Origin: a virus
DNA: 5,603 nt
Reading direction: 5' to 3' (one strand)
Virus record (IMG/VR): IMGVR_UViG_3300045988_013077
Span: 1 to 5,603 of that record
Shown here: in pieces, positions 1 to 5,603 of the stretch
How positions within the stretch are numbered: the first letter of the stretch is position 1
Layout: each line of letters starts with the position of its first letter
Made by a program: the position numbers and the translations under genes
The notes under the pieces: generated by a model
Databases searched by the model: none
What the model saw: only the letters and a program-made list of their open reading frames with translations
What the model was told of the DNA's origin: nothing

Positions 1-55
1 AACCCGGCAACACTGAACACAGGAGATGAAAATATAGAATACGCATCAGGCGGAG
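1..55. repeat. Terminal redundancy, copy 1. Bases 1-55 are identical to 5549-5603, an overlap left by assembling a circular genome of unit length 5548 nt.
   Basis: Direct comparison: aacccggcaacactgaacacaggagatgaaaatatagaatacgcatcaggcggag occurs at both window ends. The reading frame of the capsid ORF is continuous across the join (5548 mod 3 = 1, so 5018 and 157+5548 are in the same frame). Confidence 0.95.
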
Positions 56-1188: not shown

Positions 1189-2073
1189 ATGCCAATTCCA
1201 TGGGGAACAATTCTAAAAGGAGTAAATGTACTCGGCAATGTTGCATCAAGTATAGGAAGCATAACAAACGCCACAAAAAACATTGCAGGAAGCTTTGGAG
1301 GTTGGGGAAACGAAGGAACAGGCCAAAGCAGTGGAGGAAGTGTAAGCCAAGGCGGTGGAGCATCTGTAAGCGGAAGCCAAAGCGGAACAAATGATGAACA
1401 AATCGCAAAATATTTGCAGCAAGCATACGGATACCAAAGCGCAGAAGGCATAGCACAGCAAAAATACAACCAAAAAAGTATGCTTCAACAGATGGGATAC
1501 AACACAATGCAAGCCATCACACAAGGCATATACAACCACATCGAAAACACAGCCGCAATGAATTATAACAGCGCCGAAGCGCTAGCAAACAGAGAATTCC
1601 AAGAGCGGATGAGCAACACAGCATATCAAAGAACGGTTGAGGACATGAAAAAAGCAGGTCTAAACCCAATTCTTGCATTTGCAAACGGCGGAGCGAGCAC
1701 ACCGGGAGGATCAGCAGCAACAATCAGCGGAGCAAGTATGGGACTAGCAAGTAGCAGCGCACTAGGAGTCAGCAGAAGCGGCGGATTTGTTCCAAACTCA
1801 TACAGCAGCACGAGCTGGAGTAAATCAGATTGGTATAACGCATCACAAAGCTGGAACCAGATGCTAAGTGAAACACATCTAAGTCCTTACGGCTTGCAGA
1901 AAGCACTAACAAATATCGGAAACAAAACAGACGAGACAATCGAAAATGTGACTGATAAAATGGGGAAAAAAGCAGCCGATAGTGACAAAAGAGGAAACAA
2001 ACCAAACAACCCAATGCAAGACAAAACAGGAGCATATGGACAAAAGAGAAAAGCGGGTGATTACCTAAAATGA
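1189..2073 (+). CDS. VP2: Minor capsid / DNA pilot protein (Microviridae VP2, gpH analogue), 294 aa.
   Basis: It sits directly downstream of VP1. The N-terminus is rich in Gly/Ser and small residues, followed by the block [24 protein letters not shown], which I recognise as the conserved VP2 signature of gokushovirus-like phages. No alternative in-frame start exists between the upstream TAA (1147) and 1189. Confidence 0.85.
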
Positions 2074-3089
2074 GTTGTTACAAGCCGTTAATACGACTGT
2101 ACAACCCGAATGATAGAGAACAGAGCGGGCGAGTATATTCACTCGCCCGCTTTTCTCAGTTATGCGGGAAACAGATGAAATACGAAGATTTAATGTATAA
2201 TCCAAAAGTCATGCTAATTCCATGCGGACAATGTATAGGATGCAGAATCAGACAAAGAGAGGACTGGACAACGCGCATAGAGCTGGAAGCACGAGACTAT
2301 CCGAAAGAAGAAGTATGGTTTATAACACTAACATATGATGACGAACATGTGCCGGGCATGATAGTAAAAACAGGTGAAATCATGCGAAAAGTACAATACA
2401 CGTGGAAACCGGGAGAGAAGCGCCCTAGCAGTGTTCAAATTTTACTGTATGAGGATATTCAAAAGTTTCTAAAACGCCTCAGGAAGGCTTACAGGGGCAA
2501 ATTACGCTATTTTGTAGCGGGTGAGTACGGAGAACAGACAGCGAGACCACATTATCACATGATTCTATACGGCTGGAAACCAACAGACCTAGAAAACCTA
2601 TACAAGATTCACCACAACGGATACTATACCAGTGAATGGCTAAAAGGTCTGTGGAGAATGGGTCAAATACAGATAGCACAAGCAGTTCCAGAAACCTATA
2701 GATATGTTGCAGGATACGTTACAAAAAAAATGTACGAAATAGACGGTAAAAAAGCTAATGCGTACTACAAGCTAGGGCAAACAAAACCATTCGCATGCAT
2801 GAGCTTAAAGCCGGGTCTAGGAGATCACTACTATCAAGAACACAAGGCAGAAATCTGGCGACAAGGCTACATTCAGTGTACCAACGGAAAAAGAGCACAA
2901 ATACCGAGATACTATGAAAAACAAATGGAAGCAGAAAACCCACAAAGATTGTGGAGAATTAAACAGAACCGACAAAAAAACGCAATGCAGCAGAAGAGAC
3001 TACAGGTAGAGAATCAAGATTATAAAACCGTCTTAGAGACCAAAGAGCGTGTCACGAAAAAACAAACGAAAAAGAGTGGTATTTTGTAA
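2070..3089 (+). CDS. VP4: Rolling-circle replication initiator (HUH endonuclease; Microviridae VP4 / gpA-like), 339 aa.
   Basis: The start overlaps the VP2 stop as ATGA (2070-2073). RCR motif 1 is FITLTYD (aa 84-90). The HUH motif is PHYHMILYG (H161/H163, nt 2550-2558). The Tyr motif is [11 protein letters not shown] (Y212/Y216). The Cys-rich N-terminus ([13 protein letters not shown]) is typical of microvirus Rep. Confidence 0.93.
2124..2156 (+). promoter_or_regulatory. Perfect 11-bp GC-rich hairpin with loop ATATTC and a TTTTCT tail, inside codons 19-29 of the rep gene. It is an attenuator or ori stem-loop candidate.
   Basis: agcgggcgagt (2124-2134) / atattc / actcgcccgct (2141-2151), then tttct. 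Checked base by base. Confidence 0.5.
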
Positions 3090-3102
3090 TCGGTGTCACC
3101 TA

Positions 3103-3140
3103 GCCCAGTACCTATCAAGTAAGGTACTGGGCATTATTAT
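3103..3140 (+). terminator. Hairpin 14 nt after the VP4 stop, a candidate terminator of the VP1-VP2-VP4 transcription unit. The U-tract is weak and interrupted.
   Basis: gcccagtacct (3103-3113) / atcaagta / aggtactgggc (3122-3132) forms a perfect 11-bp stem, followed by attattat. Confidence 0.55.
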
Positions 3141-3146
3141 TCTAAT

Positions 3147-3197
3147 CGCGCACACACGTGCACGCGAAAAGCCACACGCGCACGCGTGCGCACGTAT
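3147..3197. repeat. Two strictly alternating pyrimidine-purine (CG/CA/TG) tracts of 20 and 25 nt separated by AAAAGC. They contain nested palindromes.
   Basis: cgcgcacacacgtgcacgcg (3147-3166) and cacacgcgcacgcgtgcgcacgtat (3173-3197) alternate Y-R without a break. The palindromes are CGTGCACG (3157-3164), CACGTG (3155-3160) and GCGCACGCGTGCGC (3178-3191, 14 bp perfect). Confidence 0.85.
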
Positions 3198-3214
3198 TAT
3201 AATATAACTTGTTG

Positions 3215-3229
3215 TAGTAGTAGTAGTAG
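3215..3229. repeat. (TAG)5 trinucleotide microsatellite, preceded by (TTG)2.
   Basis: cttgttg tag tag tag tag tag gg, read directly. Confidence 0.95.
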
Positions 3230-3266
3230 GGTATGTGGAAAAGTTGAAAACTATAATTTTAAAACG

Positions 3267-3280
3267 TTATCACGTGATAA
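3267..3280. promoter_or_regulatory. Perfect 14-bp palindrome TTATCACGTGATAA, a candidate binding site (operator) for a dimeric protein.
   Basis: Its reverse complement equals itself. It lies between the solitary iteron copy and cluster A. Confidence 0.45.
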
Positions 3281-3344
3281 ATAAGAAAAATTCCTTGTTG
3301 AAAACTTTGTTGAAAACTTGTTGAATTGTTGAAACACTCTATTG

Positions 3345-3359
3345 TGTTAAAGTTTAACA
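3345..3359. promoter_or_regulatory. 15-bp palindrome TGTTAAA-G-TTTAACA centred between the two iteron clusters.
   Basis: 7+1+7 perfect dyad symmetry, checked base by base. Confidence 0.45.
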
Positions 3360-3436
3360 ATGTTGAAATGTTGAAAACTATGTTGAAAATGTTGAAAACC
3401 CAATAGAAGCAATCCGGAATCGGACGGGAAAGTCAC

Positions 3437-3483
3437 GGCCGCGCTTCGCTGGAAGTTGCGCCGCGTAGCGCGCAACAGCGGCC
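3437..3483 (+). other. Nested GC-rich stem-loop: a 6-bp outer stem enclosing a 7-bp inner hairpin. It is a structured ssDNA/RNA element immediately upstream of the promoter -35.
   Basis: ggccgc (3437-3442) pairs with gcggcc (3478-3483). gttgcgc (3455-3461) pairs with gcgcaac (3470-3476) around the loop cgcgtagc. By eye the local GC content is far above the rest of the genome. Confidence 0.5.
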
Positions 3484-3488
3484 ATTTG

Positions 3489-3517
3489 TTGACAACTCCG
3501 GGTTTTTATGTTATAGT
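3489..3517 (+). promoter_or_regulatory. Near-consensus sigma70/sigmaA-type promoter driving the peptidase gene.
   Basis: -35 TTGACA (3489-3494), an exact 17-nt spacer, and an extended -10 TGtTATAGT (TG at 3509-3510, TATAGT at 3512-3517). It lies 44 nt upstream of the ATG at 3562. Confidence 0.75.
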
Positions 3518-3528
3518 AAAAAAAAAAA
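3518..3528. repeat. A11 homopolymer directly abutting the -10 hexamer, covering the expected transcription start.
   Basis: Eleven consecutive A residues, counted from 3518 to 3528. Confidence 0.95.
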
Positions 3529-3561
3529 TCGCCTCGCTTCGCGCGGCAGAAAGGGGACCAC

Positions 3562-3945
3562 ATGAAGCACGTGAACTATGTAAAAGCAGACTTCGGAAAA
3601 GTAAGCGAGCACTTCAAAGCAAAGGAATTTCAGTGCAAAGACAAAACCGATGGAATACTGATCGCAACCGAACTGCTTGACACACTGGAAAAAATCAGAA
3701 ACCATTTCAACGCACCAGTCATCATAAACAGCGGATACAGAACACCAAGCTGGAACAGCAAAGTAAACGGAGCATCAAATTCATACCACTGCAAAGGAAT
3801 GGCCGCCGATATCGTAGTGAAAGGGCACAGCAGCAGAGAAGTCGCAAAATACACAGACAGTATCATGGAACAGGGCGGAGTAATCAGATACACAAATTTT
3901 ACGCACGTGGATGTGCGTGAAGAACGATACAGAAAGGGGGTGTAA
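3562..3945 (+). CDS. Zn-dependent peptidoglycan peptidase, Peptidase M15 (M15A / Peptidase_M15_3, VanY / L-alanyl-D-glutamate peptidase-like) single-domain endolysin candidate, 127 aa.
   Basis: SD AAGGGG (3551-3556) lies 5 nt before the ATG. The motifs in the family order are F.A.EF.C (aa 18-25), SGYR (57-60), NSYH-x6-D (H76...D83: SYHCKGMAAD) and FTHVD (H115, D117). This gives the H/D/H zinc triad spacing typical of this fold. There is no N-terminal hydrophobic segment. Confidence 0.85.
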   Translation: MKHVNYVKADFGKVSEHFKAKEFQCKDKTDGILIATELLDTLEKIRNHFNAPVIINSGYRTPSWNSKVNGASNSYHCKGMAADIVVKGHSSREVAKYTDSIMEQGGVIRYTNFTHVDVREERYRKGV

Positions 3946-3948
3946 CCA

Positions 3949-4053
3949 ATGGCACTAATCAAGGTGAAAGACCTGCGGGAAGCAATCCAGCTAATCAAAA
4001 CCGTGTTGGAAAAGCTCGACCAGATTTACCACATCCTGAAGGAAAAGGAGTAA
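3949..4053 (+). CDS. Small hypothetical protein, 34 aa, a predicted amphipathic helix. Below the ORF-track size cut-off.
   Basis: ATG at 3949 is preceded by AAGGGGG (3934-3940) with an 8-nt spacer. Translation: MALIKVKDLREAIQLIKTVLEKLDQIYHILKEKE. It fills the gap between neighbouring genes exactly. I recognise no homology. Confidence 0.4.
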   Translation: MALIKVKDLREAIQLIKTVLEKLDQIYHILKEKE

Positions 4054-4057
4054 AACA

Positions 4058-4279
4058 ATGTTACACAAGACATGGAACGTAAGAGACCAGACCGAAAAAG
4101 ATTTAAGGCTTGAAGCGGATAAATTATACCGCGAAATCGAAACCGGATACAAGTTGATAAAGAAAATTTCAGACAAAGAAGAAGCTCATAAAATCATTGA
4201 CAAAATATGGATAATGAAATCATGGGCCAACGATATACAGCTAGAACTAATCCGAAGGGAGTACAGCAATGAAGCATAG
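4058..4279 (+). CDS. Hypothetical protein, 73 aa, highly charged and helical, with no recognisable family.
   Basis: AAGGAG (4045-4050) lies 7 nt before the ATG. It is tightly packed with its neighbours and overlaps the next gene by 11 nt. Confidence 0.55.
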   Translation: MLHKTWNVRDQTEKDLRLEADKLYREIETGYKLIKKISDKEEAHKIIDKIWIMKSWANDIQLELIRREYSNEA

Positions 4280-4388
4280 AAAGAAAATGCCGATGAAAAC
4301 CGACAAGCGCATGTTCAACGTAACGGCACGAAAAACGAAGAGTATCAACCTGAGCCAGAAACCCATGCGGGGCGGCATCCGACTGTAA
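4269..4388 (+). CDS. Small basic DNA-binding/packaging protein (phiX174 J analogue; gokushovirus ORF8-like), 39 aa. Below the ORF-track size cut-off.
   Basis: GGGAG (4257-4261) lies 7 nt before the ATG. Translation: MKHRKKMPMKTDKRMFNVTARKTKSINLSQKPMRGGIRL. 12 of 39 residues are K or R. The K/R-rich N-terminus, the ...RMF..TA.KT... core and the C-terminal PMRGGIRL match the pattern I recall for these proteins. Confidence 0.7.
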   Translation: MKHRKKMPMKTDKRMFNVTARKTKSINLSQKPMRGGIRL

Positions 4389-4400
4389 AGGAGAAAAAAC

Positions 4401-4643
4401 ATGATTCACAATTACTACGGCATCTACGACAGCGTAGCAAAGAGCTACTGCTACATTGGTGAAAGCAAGAGCAACGAAACCTTCGCACGAATGTGCGAAA
4501 TTATGGCAAAAGACGATAAAACGTTCCTTGGACAGAGTCCCGAAGACTACAAAGGGTACCACATCGCAAACTTCGACGATGAAACCGGCACATTTAAGAG
4601 CATCGAGCCGGATAAGGTATGGGAGGGCAAACCGCATGATTAA
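4401..4643 (+). CDS. VP5: Conserved microvirus non-structural protein, VP5/ORF5-like (proposed gpC analogue), 80 aa.
   Basis: AAGGAG (4388-4393) lies 7 nt before the ATG. The pattern YGIYDSVAKSY...ARM...PEDYKGYHIANFDDETGTF resembles the remembered IYDSKA..Y...PEDY.L..IG.FDD.TG.F signature of gokushovirus VP5. The position immediately upstream of VP3 matches gokushovirus synteny. Confidence 0.6.
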   Translation: MIHNYYGIYDSVAKSYCYIGESKSNETFARMCEIMAKDDKTFLGQSPEDYKGYHIANFDDETGTFKSIEPDKVWEGKPHD

Positions 4644-5031
4644 ACGATACGAGGAAGGGCGCAAGCCCTTCTTTTCAAATCCAGGCGAAAAACTGCGAAA
4701 GCAATACGTCTGGAGCAAAGACGAAAAAGGCAACAAAAAACTAATCGAGACTGAACCGATTGACATTCAGGCAGAAATCGAAAGCTATGCAGACGAATGC
4801 GACATTAAAAACATCGTCCGCAAAGCAAGTTTCGACCCACAGTTTGCCAAAAGTCTGGCAGACAGCGCAAAAACAGACGAAATTATGGACATCACGGAAT
4901 GGCCTACGAACATTCACGAGTATCACGCCATGATGGCAACAGCACAGACCAAGGCAATGGAACTGCAGCAGATGCAAGAAAAGGCCGCAAACGATACAAA
5001 GAAGAAAGAGGAAGGCAATGAACCGGAATAA
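4636..5031 (+). CDS. VP3: Internal scaffolding protein (gokushovirus VP3-like), 131 aa. The start is reassigned from the track's TTG at 4456 to the ATG at 4636.
   Basis: GGGAGGG (4621-4627) lies 8 nt before ATG 4636, which overlaps the upstream stop (ATGATTAA). DIQAEIESYADECDIKNIVRKASFDP resembles the conserved VP3 core, and the tail is acidic/Lys-rich. It ends 14 nt inside VP1, the usual VP3-VP1 arrangement. Confidence 0.78.
   Translation: MIKRYEEGRKPFFSNPGEKLRKQYVWSKDEKGNKKLIETEPIDIQAEIESYADECDIKNIVRKASFDPQFAKSLADSAKTDEIMDITEWPTNIHEYHAMMATAQTKAMELQQMQEKAANDTKKKEEGNEPE
4654..4680 (+). terminator. Intragenic GC hairpin with a GCAA (GNRA) tetraloop and a TTTTCAAAT tail, in codons 7-15 of VP3. 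An attenuator candidate.
   Basis: gaagggc (4654-4660) / gcaa / gcccttc (4665-4671), then ttttcaaat. The same 9-mer tail follows the 1161 hairpin. Confidence 0.4.
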
Positions 5032-5603
5032 TGAAAGACACTTTAACAGTGTACCACAGACACATGTAAGTCGAACACGATTCAAACGAGACCAGAACAT
5101 TCTCACGACTTTTAACGCAGGCAAACTGATTCCGTTTTACGTTGATGAAGTTTTACCAGGCGACACATTCAGCGTGGATACAGCGGCAATTATCCGAATG
5201 ACAACACCGAAATATCCAGTAATGGACGATGCTTACATCGATTTCTATTACTTCTTCTGTCCAAACCGGATTTTGTGGGACAATTTCAAACGGTTCATGG
5301 GTGAAGCAGACGATGCACCGTGGATGCCGACAAAAACGTACACAGTACCACAAATCATAATCGGAAACAAAAGTGTATGGCCTAAACCGGACAGAGCATA
5401 CCCAGACGAAAACTCAATTTTGGACTATATGGGAATCCCAGCAAAAAGCATCAAAACAAACACAGAAGCAGAATACAGTATCAATGCACTACCAATCAGA
5501 GCTTATGTGAAAATCTGGAACGAATTTTTTAGAGATCAAAACGTAGGAAACCCGGCAACACTGAACACAGGAGATGAAAATATAGAATACGCATCAGGCG
5601 GAG
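5018..5603 (+). CDS. VP1: Major capsid protein (Microviridae VP1 / F-type jelly-roll), N-terminal part. It is open at the window end and continues at base 56 (equivalently base 1 after removing the duplicate 55 nt). The full protein is 559 aa.
   Basis: ATG at 5018 follows GAGG (5008-5011) with a 6-nt spacer. My hand translation has no stop to the window end: MNRNNERHFNSVPQTHVSRTRFKRDQNILTTFNAGKLIPFYVDEVLPGDTFSVD...DFYYFFCPNRILWDNFKRF...LPIRAYVKIWNEFFRDQNV. The G.LIP...EVLPGD, FF.PNR..W.N and RAY..IWNE.FRDQN blocks are hallmark microvirus capsid motifs. The ORF is absent from the supplied track because it has no stop inside the window. Confidence 0.9.
   Translation, partial: MNRNNERHFNSVPQTHVSRTRFKRDQNILTTFNAGKLIPFYVDEVLPGDTFSVDTAAIIRMTTPKYPVMDDAYIDFYYFFCPNRILWDNFKRFMGEADDAPWMPTKTYTVPQIIIGNKSVWPKPDRAYPDENSILDYMGIPAKSIKTNTEAEYSINALPIRAYVKIWNEFFRDQNVGNPATLNTGDENIEYASGG
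5549..5603. repeat. Terminal redundancy, copy 2 (identical to 1-55).
   Basis: Same 55-mer as at the window start. Confidence 0.95.

Follow-up and report, generated by a model that had tools for sequence, protein, structure and literature searches.

The question raised by this locus is how a microvirus that encodes a putative peptidoglycan peptidase, and in which neither a holin nor an export signal was found, would bring that enzyme to the cell wall, and whether it would do so for the purpose of lysis. To our knowledge, no lysis mechanism is known for gokushoviruses. Phage phiX174 belongs to the same virus family and faces the same need to lyse its host with a tiny genome; its protein E acts non-enzymatically, as a membrane protein inhibiting MraY (PMC3394797), whereas the genome analysed here encodes a putative muralytic enzyme and no membrane protein was found in it.

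Genome organization

The stretch of DNA that was analysed (the window, 5,603 bases) carries a terminal direct repeat of 55 bases and therefore represents a complete circular genome of 5,548 nt. The virus is a gokushovirus, and its closest GenBank genomes are faecal gokushoviruses from human, pig and monkey, with approximately 76–82% nucleotide identity over parts of the genome. Genes were assigned by Pfam and PHROG profile matches and by comparison of gene order, and every recognisable gene of the whole genome lies on the + strand. The major capsid protein VP1 (Pfam Phage_F) spans the junction of the circular genome (5018–5548 plus 1–1149) and is followed by the pilot protein VP2 (1189–2073, PHROG 8742) and the replication protein VP4, or rep (2070–3089, REP_ORF2-G2P). 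A non-coding region of 472 nt (3090–3561) separates rep from the peptidase gene, which runs from its ATG to a TAA stop codon at 3562–3945, encodes 127 amino acids and is annotated here as a putative endolysin. Downstream lie o34 (3949–4053, 34 amino acids), a conserved protein predicted to form an amphipathic helix; o73 (4058–4279, 73 amino acids), a conserved gene that is the next cistron after o34; the basic small ORF o39 (4269–4388); VP5 (4401–4643, Phage_ORF5); and the VP3 scaffold gene (within 4456–5031, Chlamy_scaf). The placement of the peptidase in an accessory slot between rep and the packaging genes, proposed from an initial sequence-only reading of this DNA, was borne out, as the gene sits between VP4 and the block of small ORFs, VP5 and VP3. 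In a sister clade the same slot holds other small ORFs and no peptidase, so that it constitutes a true accessory position.

The 127-residue protein belongs to the M15/LAS clan

Profile searches assigned the protein to Pfam PF08291 (Peptidase_M15_3, clan Peptidase_MD) with E = 3.6e-25 and 88.6 bits against a cutoff of 23.2, the match covering profile positions 2–108 of 108, and to PHROG 894, annotated as endolysin, with E = 8.7e-37. The protein consists of the catalytic domain only. A secondary Pfam match to DUF882/Peptidase_M15_2 reached 31.4 bits (cutoff 27), and precomputed annotations placed PF08291 on all of the 120 best homologs out of more than 660. The zinc-peptidase signature that the sequence-only reading had pointed out, namely SGYR, H-x6-D and H.D, is present in full: SGYR occupies residues 57–60, H-x6-D corresponds to H76 and D83, and the second motif is H115-V-D117. 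These residues (S57-G58-Y59-R60, H76, D83, H115 and D117) are invariant in an alignment of 32 close homologs, and likewise in 12 homologs with identities down to 35%. The gene is under purifying selection, with a median dN/dS of 0.147 over 28 pairs.

The only solved structure matched by the sequence was that of the Streptomyces albus G zinc D-Ala-D-Ala carboxypeptidase (PDB ID 1LBU, MEROPS M15A; E = 6e-5), with which the SGYR...NS-H-x-G-x-AAD block aligns. In this alignment R60, H76 and D83 of the phage protein correspond to R138, H154 and D161 of 1LBU, which we take to be the substrate-binding arginine and two zinc ligands, respectively. The likeness extends over just about 45 residues, and the Streptomyces enzyme differs in being a secreted, two-domain protein of 213 amino acids. 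An AlphaFold2 model of the phage peptidase had a pLDDT of 76.9, with residues 58–61 and 70–77 below 50. Foldseek searches of the PDB with this model, which is poor at residues 58–77, returned no match at E ≤ 0.001 and a best value of E = 0.02; the top matches, although weak (E = 0.02–0.4), were all LAS enzymes (VanY, VanXY, Ply500, LysB4, LysECD7 and ChiX). Their weakness is attributable to the poorly modelled loop at residues 58–77. Predicted structures of viral M15A proteins matched the model strongly, with E values down to 2.7e-19.

By profile and motif, the protein is classified as an M15/LAS-clan zinc peptidase with PF08291 as its best family, so that the earlier M15 assignment withstood the profile search. 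Its description as VanY/Ply500-like holds at the level of the clan and fails at that of the family, since Pfam VanY (PF02557) was unmatched at E ≤ 0.1 and the structural matches concerned reached only E = 0.02–0.06; a relationship to VanY at clan level only has also been stated in the literature (PMC3394797). The score against the MepK equivalog model (NCBIfam NF053624) was 44 bits, far under its cutoff of 185. Judged by its family and intact motifs, the enzyme would be expected to have muralytic activity. Activity data for microviral M15 peptidases were not found in the literature searched.

A known gene class that is fixed in this lineage

Peptidases of this kind have been known in microviruses since 2012, when Roux et al. 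(PLoS One 7:e40418; PMC3394797) described PF08291 peptidases in 11 human-associated Microviridae (5 gokushoviruses), showed that they had been acquired horizontally, proposed an endolysin role for them, found their closest homologs in prophage lysis cassettes with holins, and observed that four gokushoviral copies group with Faecalibacterium/Clostridiales. Peptidases have since been counted among the lysis-associated accessory genes (Kirchberger 2022, PMC9239249), microviruses bearing M15 peptidases have been isolated from the sea on Roseobacter hosts (PMC11499846), and M15 peptidases appear again in reports on amoyviruses and on a resurrected gokushovirus. In GenBank, the gut gokushoviruses KX513864, KX513868, KX513876 and KX513877, the MG945xxx series and Dulem viruses 178 and 189 are annotated with "peptidase M15" or "similar to peptidase". 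The gene described here shares with these the family PF08291, the subfamily, the gut habitat, the proposed endolysin role and the inferred horizontal origin with Clostridiales/Faecalibacterium affinity; there is no essential difference, and the window genome simply adds one more member to the clade. Both the gene class and the reading of it are thus already known, having been reported in 2012 and being routinely annotated, and for this reason its occurrence here adds nothing new.

What is added are statistics at the level of the clade: the gene is fixed and occupies the promoter-proximal position, and the search for a holin in about 100 genomes with the peptidase gave none. Identity of the peptidase ranges from 45–74% for GenBank relatives up to 95–97% for metagenomic ones. 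More than 660 close homologs were retrieved, on contigs of approximately 5.6 kb, and the best 120 of them all share 81% identity or more with the protein of the window; names given to homologs include "MAG TPA: peptidase [Microviridae sp.]" and, at JGI, "YcbK (DUF882 family)". When relatives were selected by their rep gene, 55 of the 57 carried the peptidase in the same slot; in the remaining two, the contig is broken at this very point. The peptidase gene is fixed in this gokushovirus lineage, and while the initial suspicion that the class might not be new proved right, the accompanying word "sporadic" was too low an estimate. A second, distant gokushovirus clade (VP1 approximately 40% and rep approximately 36% identical) carries the peptidase as well, sometimes in a different gene order. 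In a third clade (VP1 45–53% identical) the same backbone is found, including o34 and an o73-like gene, with no peptidase and with other, non-hydrophobic small ORFs filling the slot.

The nearest cellular homologs of the peptidase are 40–53% identical to it and all come from Clostridia, including Lachnospiraceae, Oscillospiraceae, Christensenellaceae, Faecalibacterium and Alkaliphilus. The M15_3 endolysins encoded by prophages of Clostridia and by tailed phages of the gut (e.g. Faecalibacterium phage FP_oengus and our loci L111–L125) have a catalytic domain that is likewise 40–53% identical, with the same invariant motifs, and some of them are also single-domain proteins of 120–133 amino acids. 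Several others possess extra domains (203–341 amino acids in all), some of them cell-wall-binding, of which the microviral peptidase has none. They adjoin small transmembrane proteins, including the holins phrog_199 and phrog_443, whereas the microviral gene is without such a neighbour. As a separate observation, Vibrio phage endolysins are 46–48% identical to the peptidase, about as close as the Clostridial homologs, which counts against the Clostridial account.

A conserved promoter heads a probable genome-length operon

A sigma-70/sigma-A-type promoter is located on the + strand at 3489–3517, 73 nt upstream of the peptidase gene, and consists of TTGACA (3489–3494), a 17-nt spacer ending in TGT and TATAGT (3512–3517). 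It matches the consensus at 11 of 12 positions and has a TGn extended −10 element. The claim that it is the only near-perfect promoter of its type was confirmed, as it is the sole + strand site in the genome scoring at least 10/12. Among 2,000 dinucleotide-preserving shuffles of the genome, 97 yielded any + strand site of at least 11/12, and 7 such a site together with the TG extension. In a set of 46 related genomes, 92 + strand sites reached 10/12 or better, and 36 of them are located in the 160 nt preceding the peptidase gene, where approximately 2.6 would be expected from length, and most of these relatives have a site of this quality inside the 160-nt interval. Further strong sites in relatives lie 245–340 nt upstream of the gene. 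The upstream regions of the relatives comprise several unrelated sequence types, yet the position of the promoter is kept. The promoter is real and positionally conserved.

The leader (3518–3561) is composed of an A11 run at the probable transcription start (3518–3528), a GC-rich segment and a Shine-Dalgarno sequence, AAAGGGGA, at 3550–3557, 4 nt ahead of the peptidase ATG; an alignment shows its sequence to be conserved among the type-A relatives. A regulatory leader RNA was considered and discarded, the fold having a non-significant z of −0.42 and Rfam giving no significant match in the window. Strong Shine-Dalgarno sites precede the peptidase gene, o34, o73, o39 and VP5.

A genome scan found no terminator after the peptidase gene. 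The only strong terminator-like hairpin on the + strand, with an 11-bp stem, lies just after rep at 3103–3132, 14 nt 3′ of the rep stop codon; it was present in 41 of the 46 genomes, with a near-invariant loop, compensatory changes in the stem and usually a T-rich tail behind it, and it is probably the terminator of a genome-length transcript and/or an origin-related structure. The gene order peptidase–o34–o73–o39–VP5–VP3–VP1–VP2–VP4 is fixed in the relatives compared. With a sole strong promoter, no terminator after the peptidase, a gap of 3 nt to the next ORF and a hairpin after rep, the promoter would drive the whole operon, and the genes most likely form one genome-length operon in which the peptidase, nearest to the promoter, is the first cistron. 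The sequence-only reading had described the promoter as the peptidase's own, a description that has to be abandoned, since this is the sole strong promoter, no terminator follows the peptidase and the next ORF begins 3 nt further on. As an observation in its own right, a lysis enzyme placed first in an operon leaves no obvious way to time lysis, a point that counts against the endolysin account.

Search for a holin and for an export signal

Every + strand stop-to-stop segment of at least 25 amino acids in the three frames of the circularised genome was scanned by the Kyte-Doolittle method with a 19-residue window (KD19). The scan was validated solely by its detection of holins beside the Clostridial homologs: the same procedure, used as a positive control, revealed small ORFs with 1–3 hydrophobic segments adjoining the nearest of them, and three of the small ORFs beside Clostridial homologs match PHROG holins (E = 1e-23, 2e-17 and 2e-5). 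In the window, the KD19 maximum was 1.69 and came from a GTA-repeat run without a start codon, and the second-highest value, 1.56, lay in the non-conserved o52. The scan detected no conserved hydrophobic + strand ORF in the window, in 46 peptidase-selected genomes or in 53 o34-selected genomes, and no overprinted ORF of the phiX174 E type with an N-terminal transmembrane helix in the three + frames of the circular genome; no small ORF of the window matched a PHROG holin. By this hydrophobicity scan, the earlier statement that no + strand ORF encodes a transmembrane segment stands for the window and extends to about 100 peptidase-bearing relatives. No canonical holin-endolysin cassette was thus detected, as the scan showed no holin encoded with the peptidase in either.

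Several candidates were examined and set aside. The ORF o52 (3049–3207, + strand), weakly hydrophobic with its KD of 1.56, does not stay open in many relatives, where stop codons or frameshifts disrupt it; it reads through the rep-proximal hairpin, and the conserved feature of this region is that covarying hairpin. Antisense ORFs, many of them long and hydrophobic owing to the T-rich complement, vary between genomes in their borders and presence and are not positionally conserved. For an ORF overprinted in VP1 ("LLSVLCVYAIITAISRV"), a few relatives show KD values as high as 2.3; in the window it lacks hydrophobicity, and it is not consistent from genome to genome.

The N-terminus of the peptidase (MKHVNYVKADFGKVSEHFKAKEFQCKDKTD) is polar and lysine-rich over its first 30 residues, which speaks for neither a signal peptide nor a SAR segment and agrees with what had been noted initially. 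Homologs of 136–176 amino acids with N-terminal extensions were considered as carriers of hidden signal peptides; they begin with "MTTPGFYVIVKKK..." and represent translated promoter and leader, polar in composition, in which TTGACA was read as a TTG start and followed by the A-run and leader, a gene-calling artefact. Lysins that act without a canonical holin include SAR endolysins (P1 Lyz), signal-peptide lysins (Lys44 of Oenococcus phage fOg44) and the chaperone-assisted LysA of Ms6. All of these have an N-terminal signal or a chaperone, whereas the peptidase described here has a polar N-terminus and no dedicated partner was found for it.

The closest candidate for such a partner was o34, whose start lies 3 nt after the peptidase stop codon in the window and −1 to +4 nt from it in 44 of 46 genomes. 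Its product has the core motif LxKLDxIYHAL, a muH of approximately 0.68, a net charge of approximately 0 and a mean hydrophobicity near 0. All of the 53 additional o34-bearing IMG/VR genomes, including ones of the second, distant clade, also have the peptidase. A role as dedicated partner, as suggested by the tight spacing and this co-occurrence, was refuted by eight GenBank genomes that carry o34 without a peptidase, so that o34 is a gokushovirus backbone gene. The o73 protein, 39–93% identical across the clade and fixed in position, looks coiled-coil-like from its sequence, and an o73-like ORF is also found in the peptidase-less clade. Neither o34 nor o73 gave a Pfam, PHROG or NCBIfam match.

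Proposed role of the peptidase and alternatives

We propose, with moderate confidence in the account as a whole, that the protein is a Clostridia-derived cytoplasmic M15_3 endolysin, made from the first cistron of the operon, which reaches the wall after membrane damage that does not depend on it. An ancestor of this gut gokushovirus lineage would have taken the gene from tailed phages or prophages, most likely of Clostridia, and the lineage would have retained it as an endolysin. The replicative form would be transcribed as a single genome-length operon from the one strong promoter in the long non-coding region and, as the first cistron of the sole operon, the peptidase would be made whenever phage genes are expressed. 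It would accumulate in the cytoplasm, where it would be harmless, and would probably reach the wall only once the membrane had been compromised by a peptidase-independent exit mechanism of the backbone, then speeding up or completing lysis. Since the sister clade has the same backbone without the peptidase and no hydrophobic ORF in the slot, the enzyme probably supplements an ancestral exit mechanism. We infer a role in lysis rather than in entry, and a dependence on a pre-existing membrane lesion.

The absence of both a holin and a signal sequence from what was found would also be explained if the peptidase served entry. Attached to the virion, enclosed in it or set free together with it, the enzyme could open peptidoglycan locally from outside and let the tail-less particle of 25–30 nm, or its pilot protein VP2, reach the membrane, which would matter most with a thick Gram-positive wall; as an enzyme acting from without it would need no holin. 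The phi6 protein P5 and the PRD1 protein P7 are precedents for virion-borne wall hydrolases, large virion-type proteins of tailed phages, tape-measure and Gp5-hub proteins among them, contain C-terminal M15A domains structurally like the peptidase, and the taxonomy of the homologs, the promoter type and the Shine-Dalgarno usage are compatible with a Firmicute host. We nevertheless regard an entry function as quite unlikely, given that the peptidase is free-standing and neither fused nor adjacent to VP1 or VP2, that a T=1 capsid such as that of a microvirus leaves hardly any space to spare, that the nearest homologs are free-standing or cell-wall-binding-domain-fused lysins located beside holins in prophage lysis cassettes, and that the sister clade manages without the gene. 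The same location of the homologs speaks against non-lytic remodelling of the wall, in which a MepK-like endopeptidase would loosen cross-links for chronic release or for effects on cell shape or superinfection. Such a role has in its favour the secondary matches to DUF882/Peptidase_M15_2 (31.4 against 27 bits) and to the NCBIfam MepK model, together with the "YcbK (DUF882 family)" name of homologs; as the MepK score falls far below its cutoff, phage endolysin families match best, and MepK is a periplasmic enzyme whereas the peptidase is without an export signal, we consider it highly improbable.

A holin could also be present in cryptic form, with o34, o73, the Gly/Ala-rich N-terminus of VP2 or an overprinted ORF permeabilising the membrane at a set time. 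The strong amphipathicity of o34, its near-universal spacing of no more than 4 nt from the end of the peptidase gene and its company with the peptidase in the 53 additional genomes would fit such a part, as would the uncharged Gly/Ala-rich run of 23 residues at the N-terminus of VP2, pilot proteins being known to insert into membranes during DNA delivery. We give this explanation a small chance: o34 and the o73-like gene also occur in the eight genomes without peptidase and are therefore backbone genes, the lack of net charge and hydrophobicity disqualifies o34 both as a transmembrane segment and as a cationic lytic peptide, o52 is broken in many relatives, the antisense ORFs are unconserved, and the small ORFs are without PHROG holin matches. 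The reading of the peptidase as a cytoplasmic endolysin that follows membrane damage caused by the backbone is thus the one that we favour.

Host range and outlook

Two gut gokushovirus clades carry a Clostridia-type endolysin without a holin or export signal, and a lysin is altogether missing from at least one sister clade that shares their backbone. This comparison of clades, together with the strong sigma-A-like promoter and the Shine-Dalgarno usage, makes the lineage workable for the study of two questions, namely by what route a minimal phage lets a lysin out of the cytoplasm and whether Gram-positive anaerobes of the gut are among the hosts of gokushoviruses. We tentatively infer a Clostridial host. 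A more specific proposal, that this abundant gut lineage infects Gram-positive Clostridia and uses its holin-less M15 peptidase, reduced to a catalytic domain, through a lesion made by a backbone protein (e.g. VP2), or for both entry and exit, seems to us doubtful; if true, it would represent a mode of peptidase use so far undescribed for any phage, in a setting, the infection of Clostridia by microviruses, that is almost undocumented. Only two microviral prophages have been recorded in Gram-positive bacteria in the literature, and a search of 185,579 species-representative genomes yielded no prophage of this rep lineage. The canonical −35 and −10 elements and the strong Shine-Dalgarno sites argue against a host among the Bacteroidetes. 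The sole whole-genome match found with the peptidase was a 5.7-kb contig binned into the "Bacteroides sp. CAG:545" MAG, and because of the sigma-70 promoters and the strong Shine-Dalgarno sites this match is probably a binning artefact.

Repeats and hairpins around rep and upstream of the peptidase gene

In the non-coding region upstream of the gene for the putative M15 peptidase, the motif (T/A)TGTTGAAAA(C) is repeated as an array at window positions 3294-3399, with eight copies of the heptamer GTTGAAA. Across the 46 genomes of peptidase-selected relatives, the 480 nt preceding the peptidase gene carried this heptamer at 9.96 copies per kb versus 0.28 per kb elsewhere, a roughly 36-fold enrichment, and in GenBank relatives the repeat block was conserved at the nucleotide level too. 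By its sequence, the array looks iteron-like or resembles a protein-binding array. The segments 3140-3229 and 3400-3485 hold GC/AC-rich inverted repeats (CGCGCACACACGTGCACGCG...CGCGCACGCGTGCGCACG), a (GTA)5 run (3214-3229) and a second GC-rich block located directly before the promoter, all of them candidates for ssDNA hairpins serving complementary-strand synthesis.

A hairpin, GCCCAGTACCT-ATCAAGTA-AGGTACTGGGC, was detected at 3103-3132, starting 14 nt past the stop codon of rep, the replication protein gene. Counterparts with a nearly invariant loop were found in 41 of the 46 relatives, usually followed on the 3' side by a T-rich tail, and the stem showed compensatory changes among them (GCCTAG..CTAGGC, GCCAAG..CTTGGC, GTCCAG..CTGGAC). 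The structure could be a terminator, an origin-related element, or both. Another hairpin, perfect, GC-rich and with a stem of 10-12 bp (GCGGGCGAGT-ATATTC-ACTCGCCCGC), lies at 2125-2150, within the 5' end of the rep (VP4) coding region, where it is overlapped by a sub-threshold match to the Rfam family 'Termite-leu'. Similar inverted repeats were present in 43 of the 46 relatives, with three poor matches; the variation consisted mostly of G-T wobble, with some compensatory changes (L011, L029, L044/L045). This element could act as an origin or in translational control.

Promoter variants and the peptidase leader

In several relatives (L003-L006, L013, L015, L017, L030), the -35 hexamer is placed in the loop of a perfect inverted repeat of 5-9 bp that is followed by a T-run, an arrangement terminator-like in sequence. 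Relative to the peptidase start, this repeat lies at roughly -80 to -40, equivalent to window positions 3475-3503, and its stems covary (CCGGAG/CTCCGG, CCGGGG/CCCCGG, GACGGAG/CTCCGTC). Most genomes with this configuration also carry a further strong promoter, located 245-340 nt upstream; in the window, neither the left arm of the inverted repeat nor this upstream promoter is present. One subclade (L001, L028, L030-L037, L043) has a strong promoter, TTGACA-17-TATACT (10-11/12), inside the peptidase gene at its 3' end, with TACACT replacing TATACT in two of its genomes. Located at +304 to +313 relative to the peptidase start, it is directed at the downstream genes, and several genomes of this subclade have no promoter shortly before the peptidase gene.

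Immediately 3' of the -10 element in the window, at the probable transcription start, is a run of eleven A residues (A11, 3518-3528), which could in principle support reiterative transcription. The length of the A-run differs between relatives, so that the frame initiated at TTGACA falls in or out of the peptidase frame, and this variable shift accounts for the 136-176 aa peptidases in databases, which are gene-calling artefacts.

The accessory slot in related clades

Downstream of the peptidase gene, the small ORFs o34 (3949-4053), with the motif LxKLDxIYHAL, and o73 (4058-4279), whose sequence looks coiled-coil-like, matched no family in Pfam, PHROG or NCBIfam. Both are conserved in three or more clades of gut gokushoviruses, one of them peptidase-less.

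The peptidase is also encoded by a second gokushovirus clade from IMG/VR (L182-L230), approximately 40% identical in VP1, the major capsid protein, and 36% in rep. Its gene order is pep-(x)-o39-o34, o39 being another small ORF, but o39-o34-pep in L182, L188 and L197. Between the clades, conservation is higher for the peptidase (about 57%) and for o34 (about 69%) than for capsid or rep, which fits the reported recombination of a peptidase region of about 700 nt (PMC9239249).

A sister clade with genomes of 5.2-5.5 kb lacks the peptidase (L235-L237 and L239-L243: MG945157, MG945136, MG945199, MG945423, MT135258, MG945391, KT264798, MG945135). In several members, the accessory slot is occupied by various small ORFs, among them one of 58-74 aa that is rich in Cys (..YKHCDRQCDKCPN..YYCSYIH..) and may encode a zinc ribbon; none of the ORFs seen in this slot in the clade was hydrophobic.

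Doubtful records and terminal repeats

In the UNVERIFIED record MT135277.1 (L234), the peptidase is broken into fragments in different frames, reflecting either sequencing error or a decaying copy. An entire microvirus genome of 5,739 nt (L110, CAVKUS010000079.1) lies inside a MAG bin of 'Bacteroides sp. CAG:545'. As the clade has sigma-70 promoters and Shine-Dalgarno usage, this is probably a binning artefact and no evidence of host. The exact 55-nt direct repeat at the ends of the window (1-55 and 5549-5603) is a signature of circular assembly; many IMG/VR relatives likewise have terminal repeats of 55 or 99 nt, lengths that mirror the assembler k-mer size.
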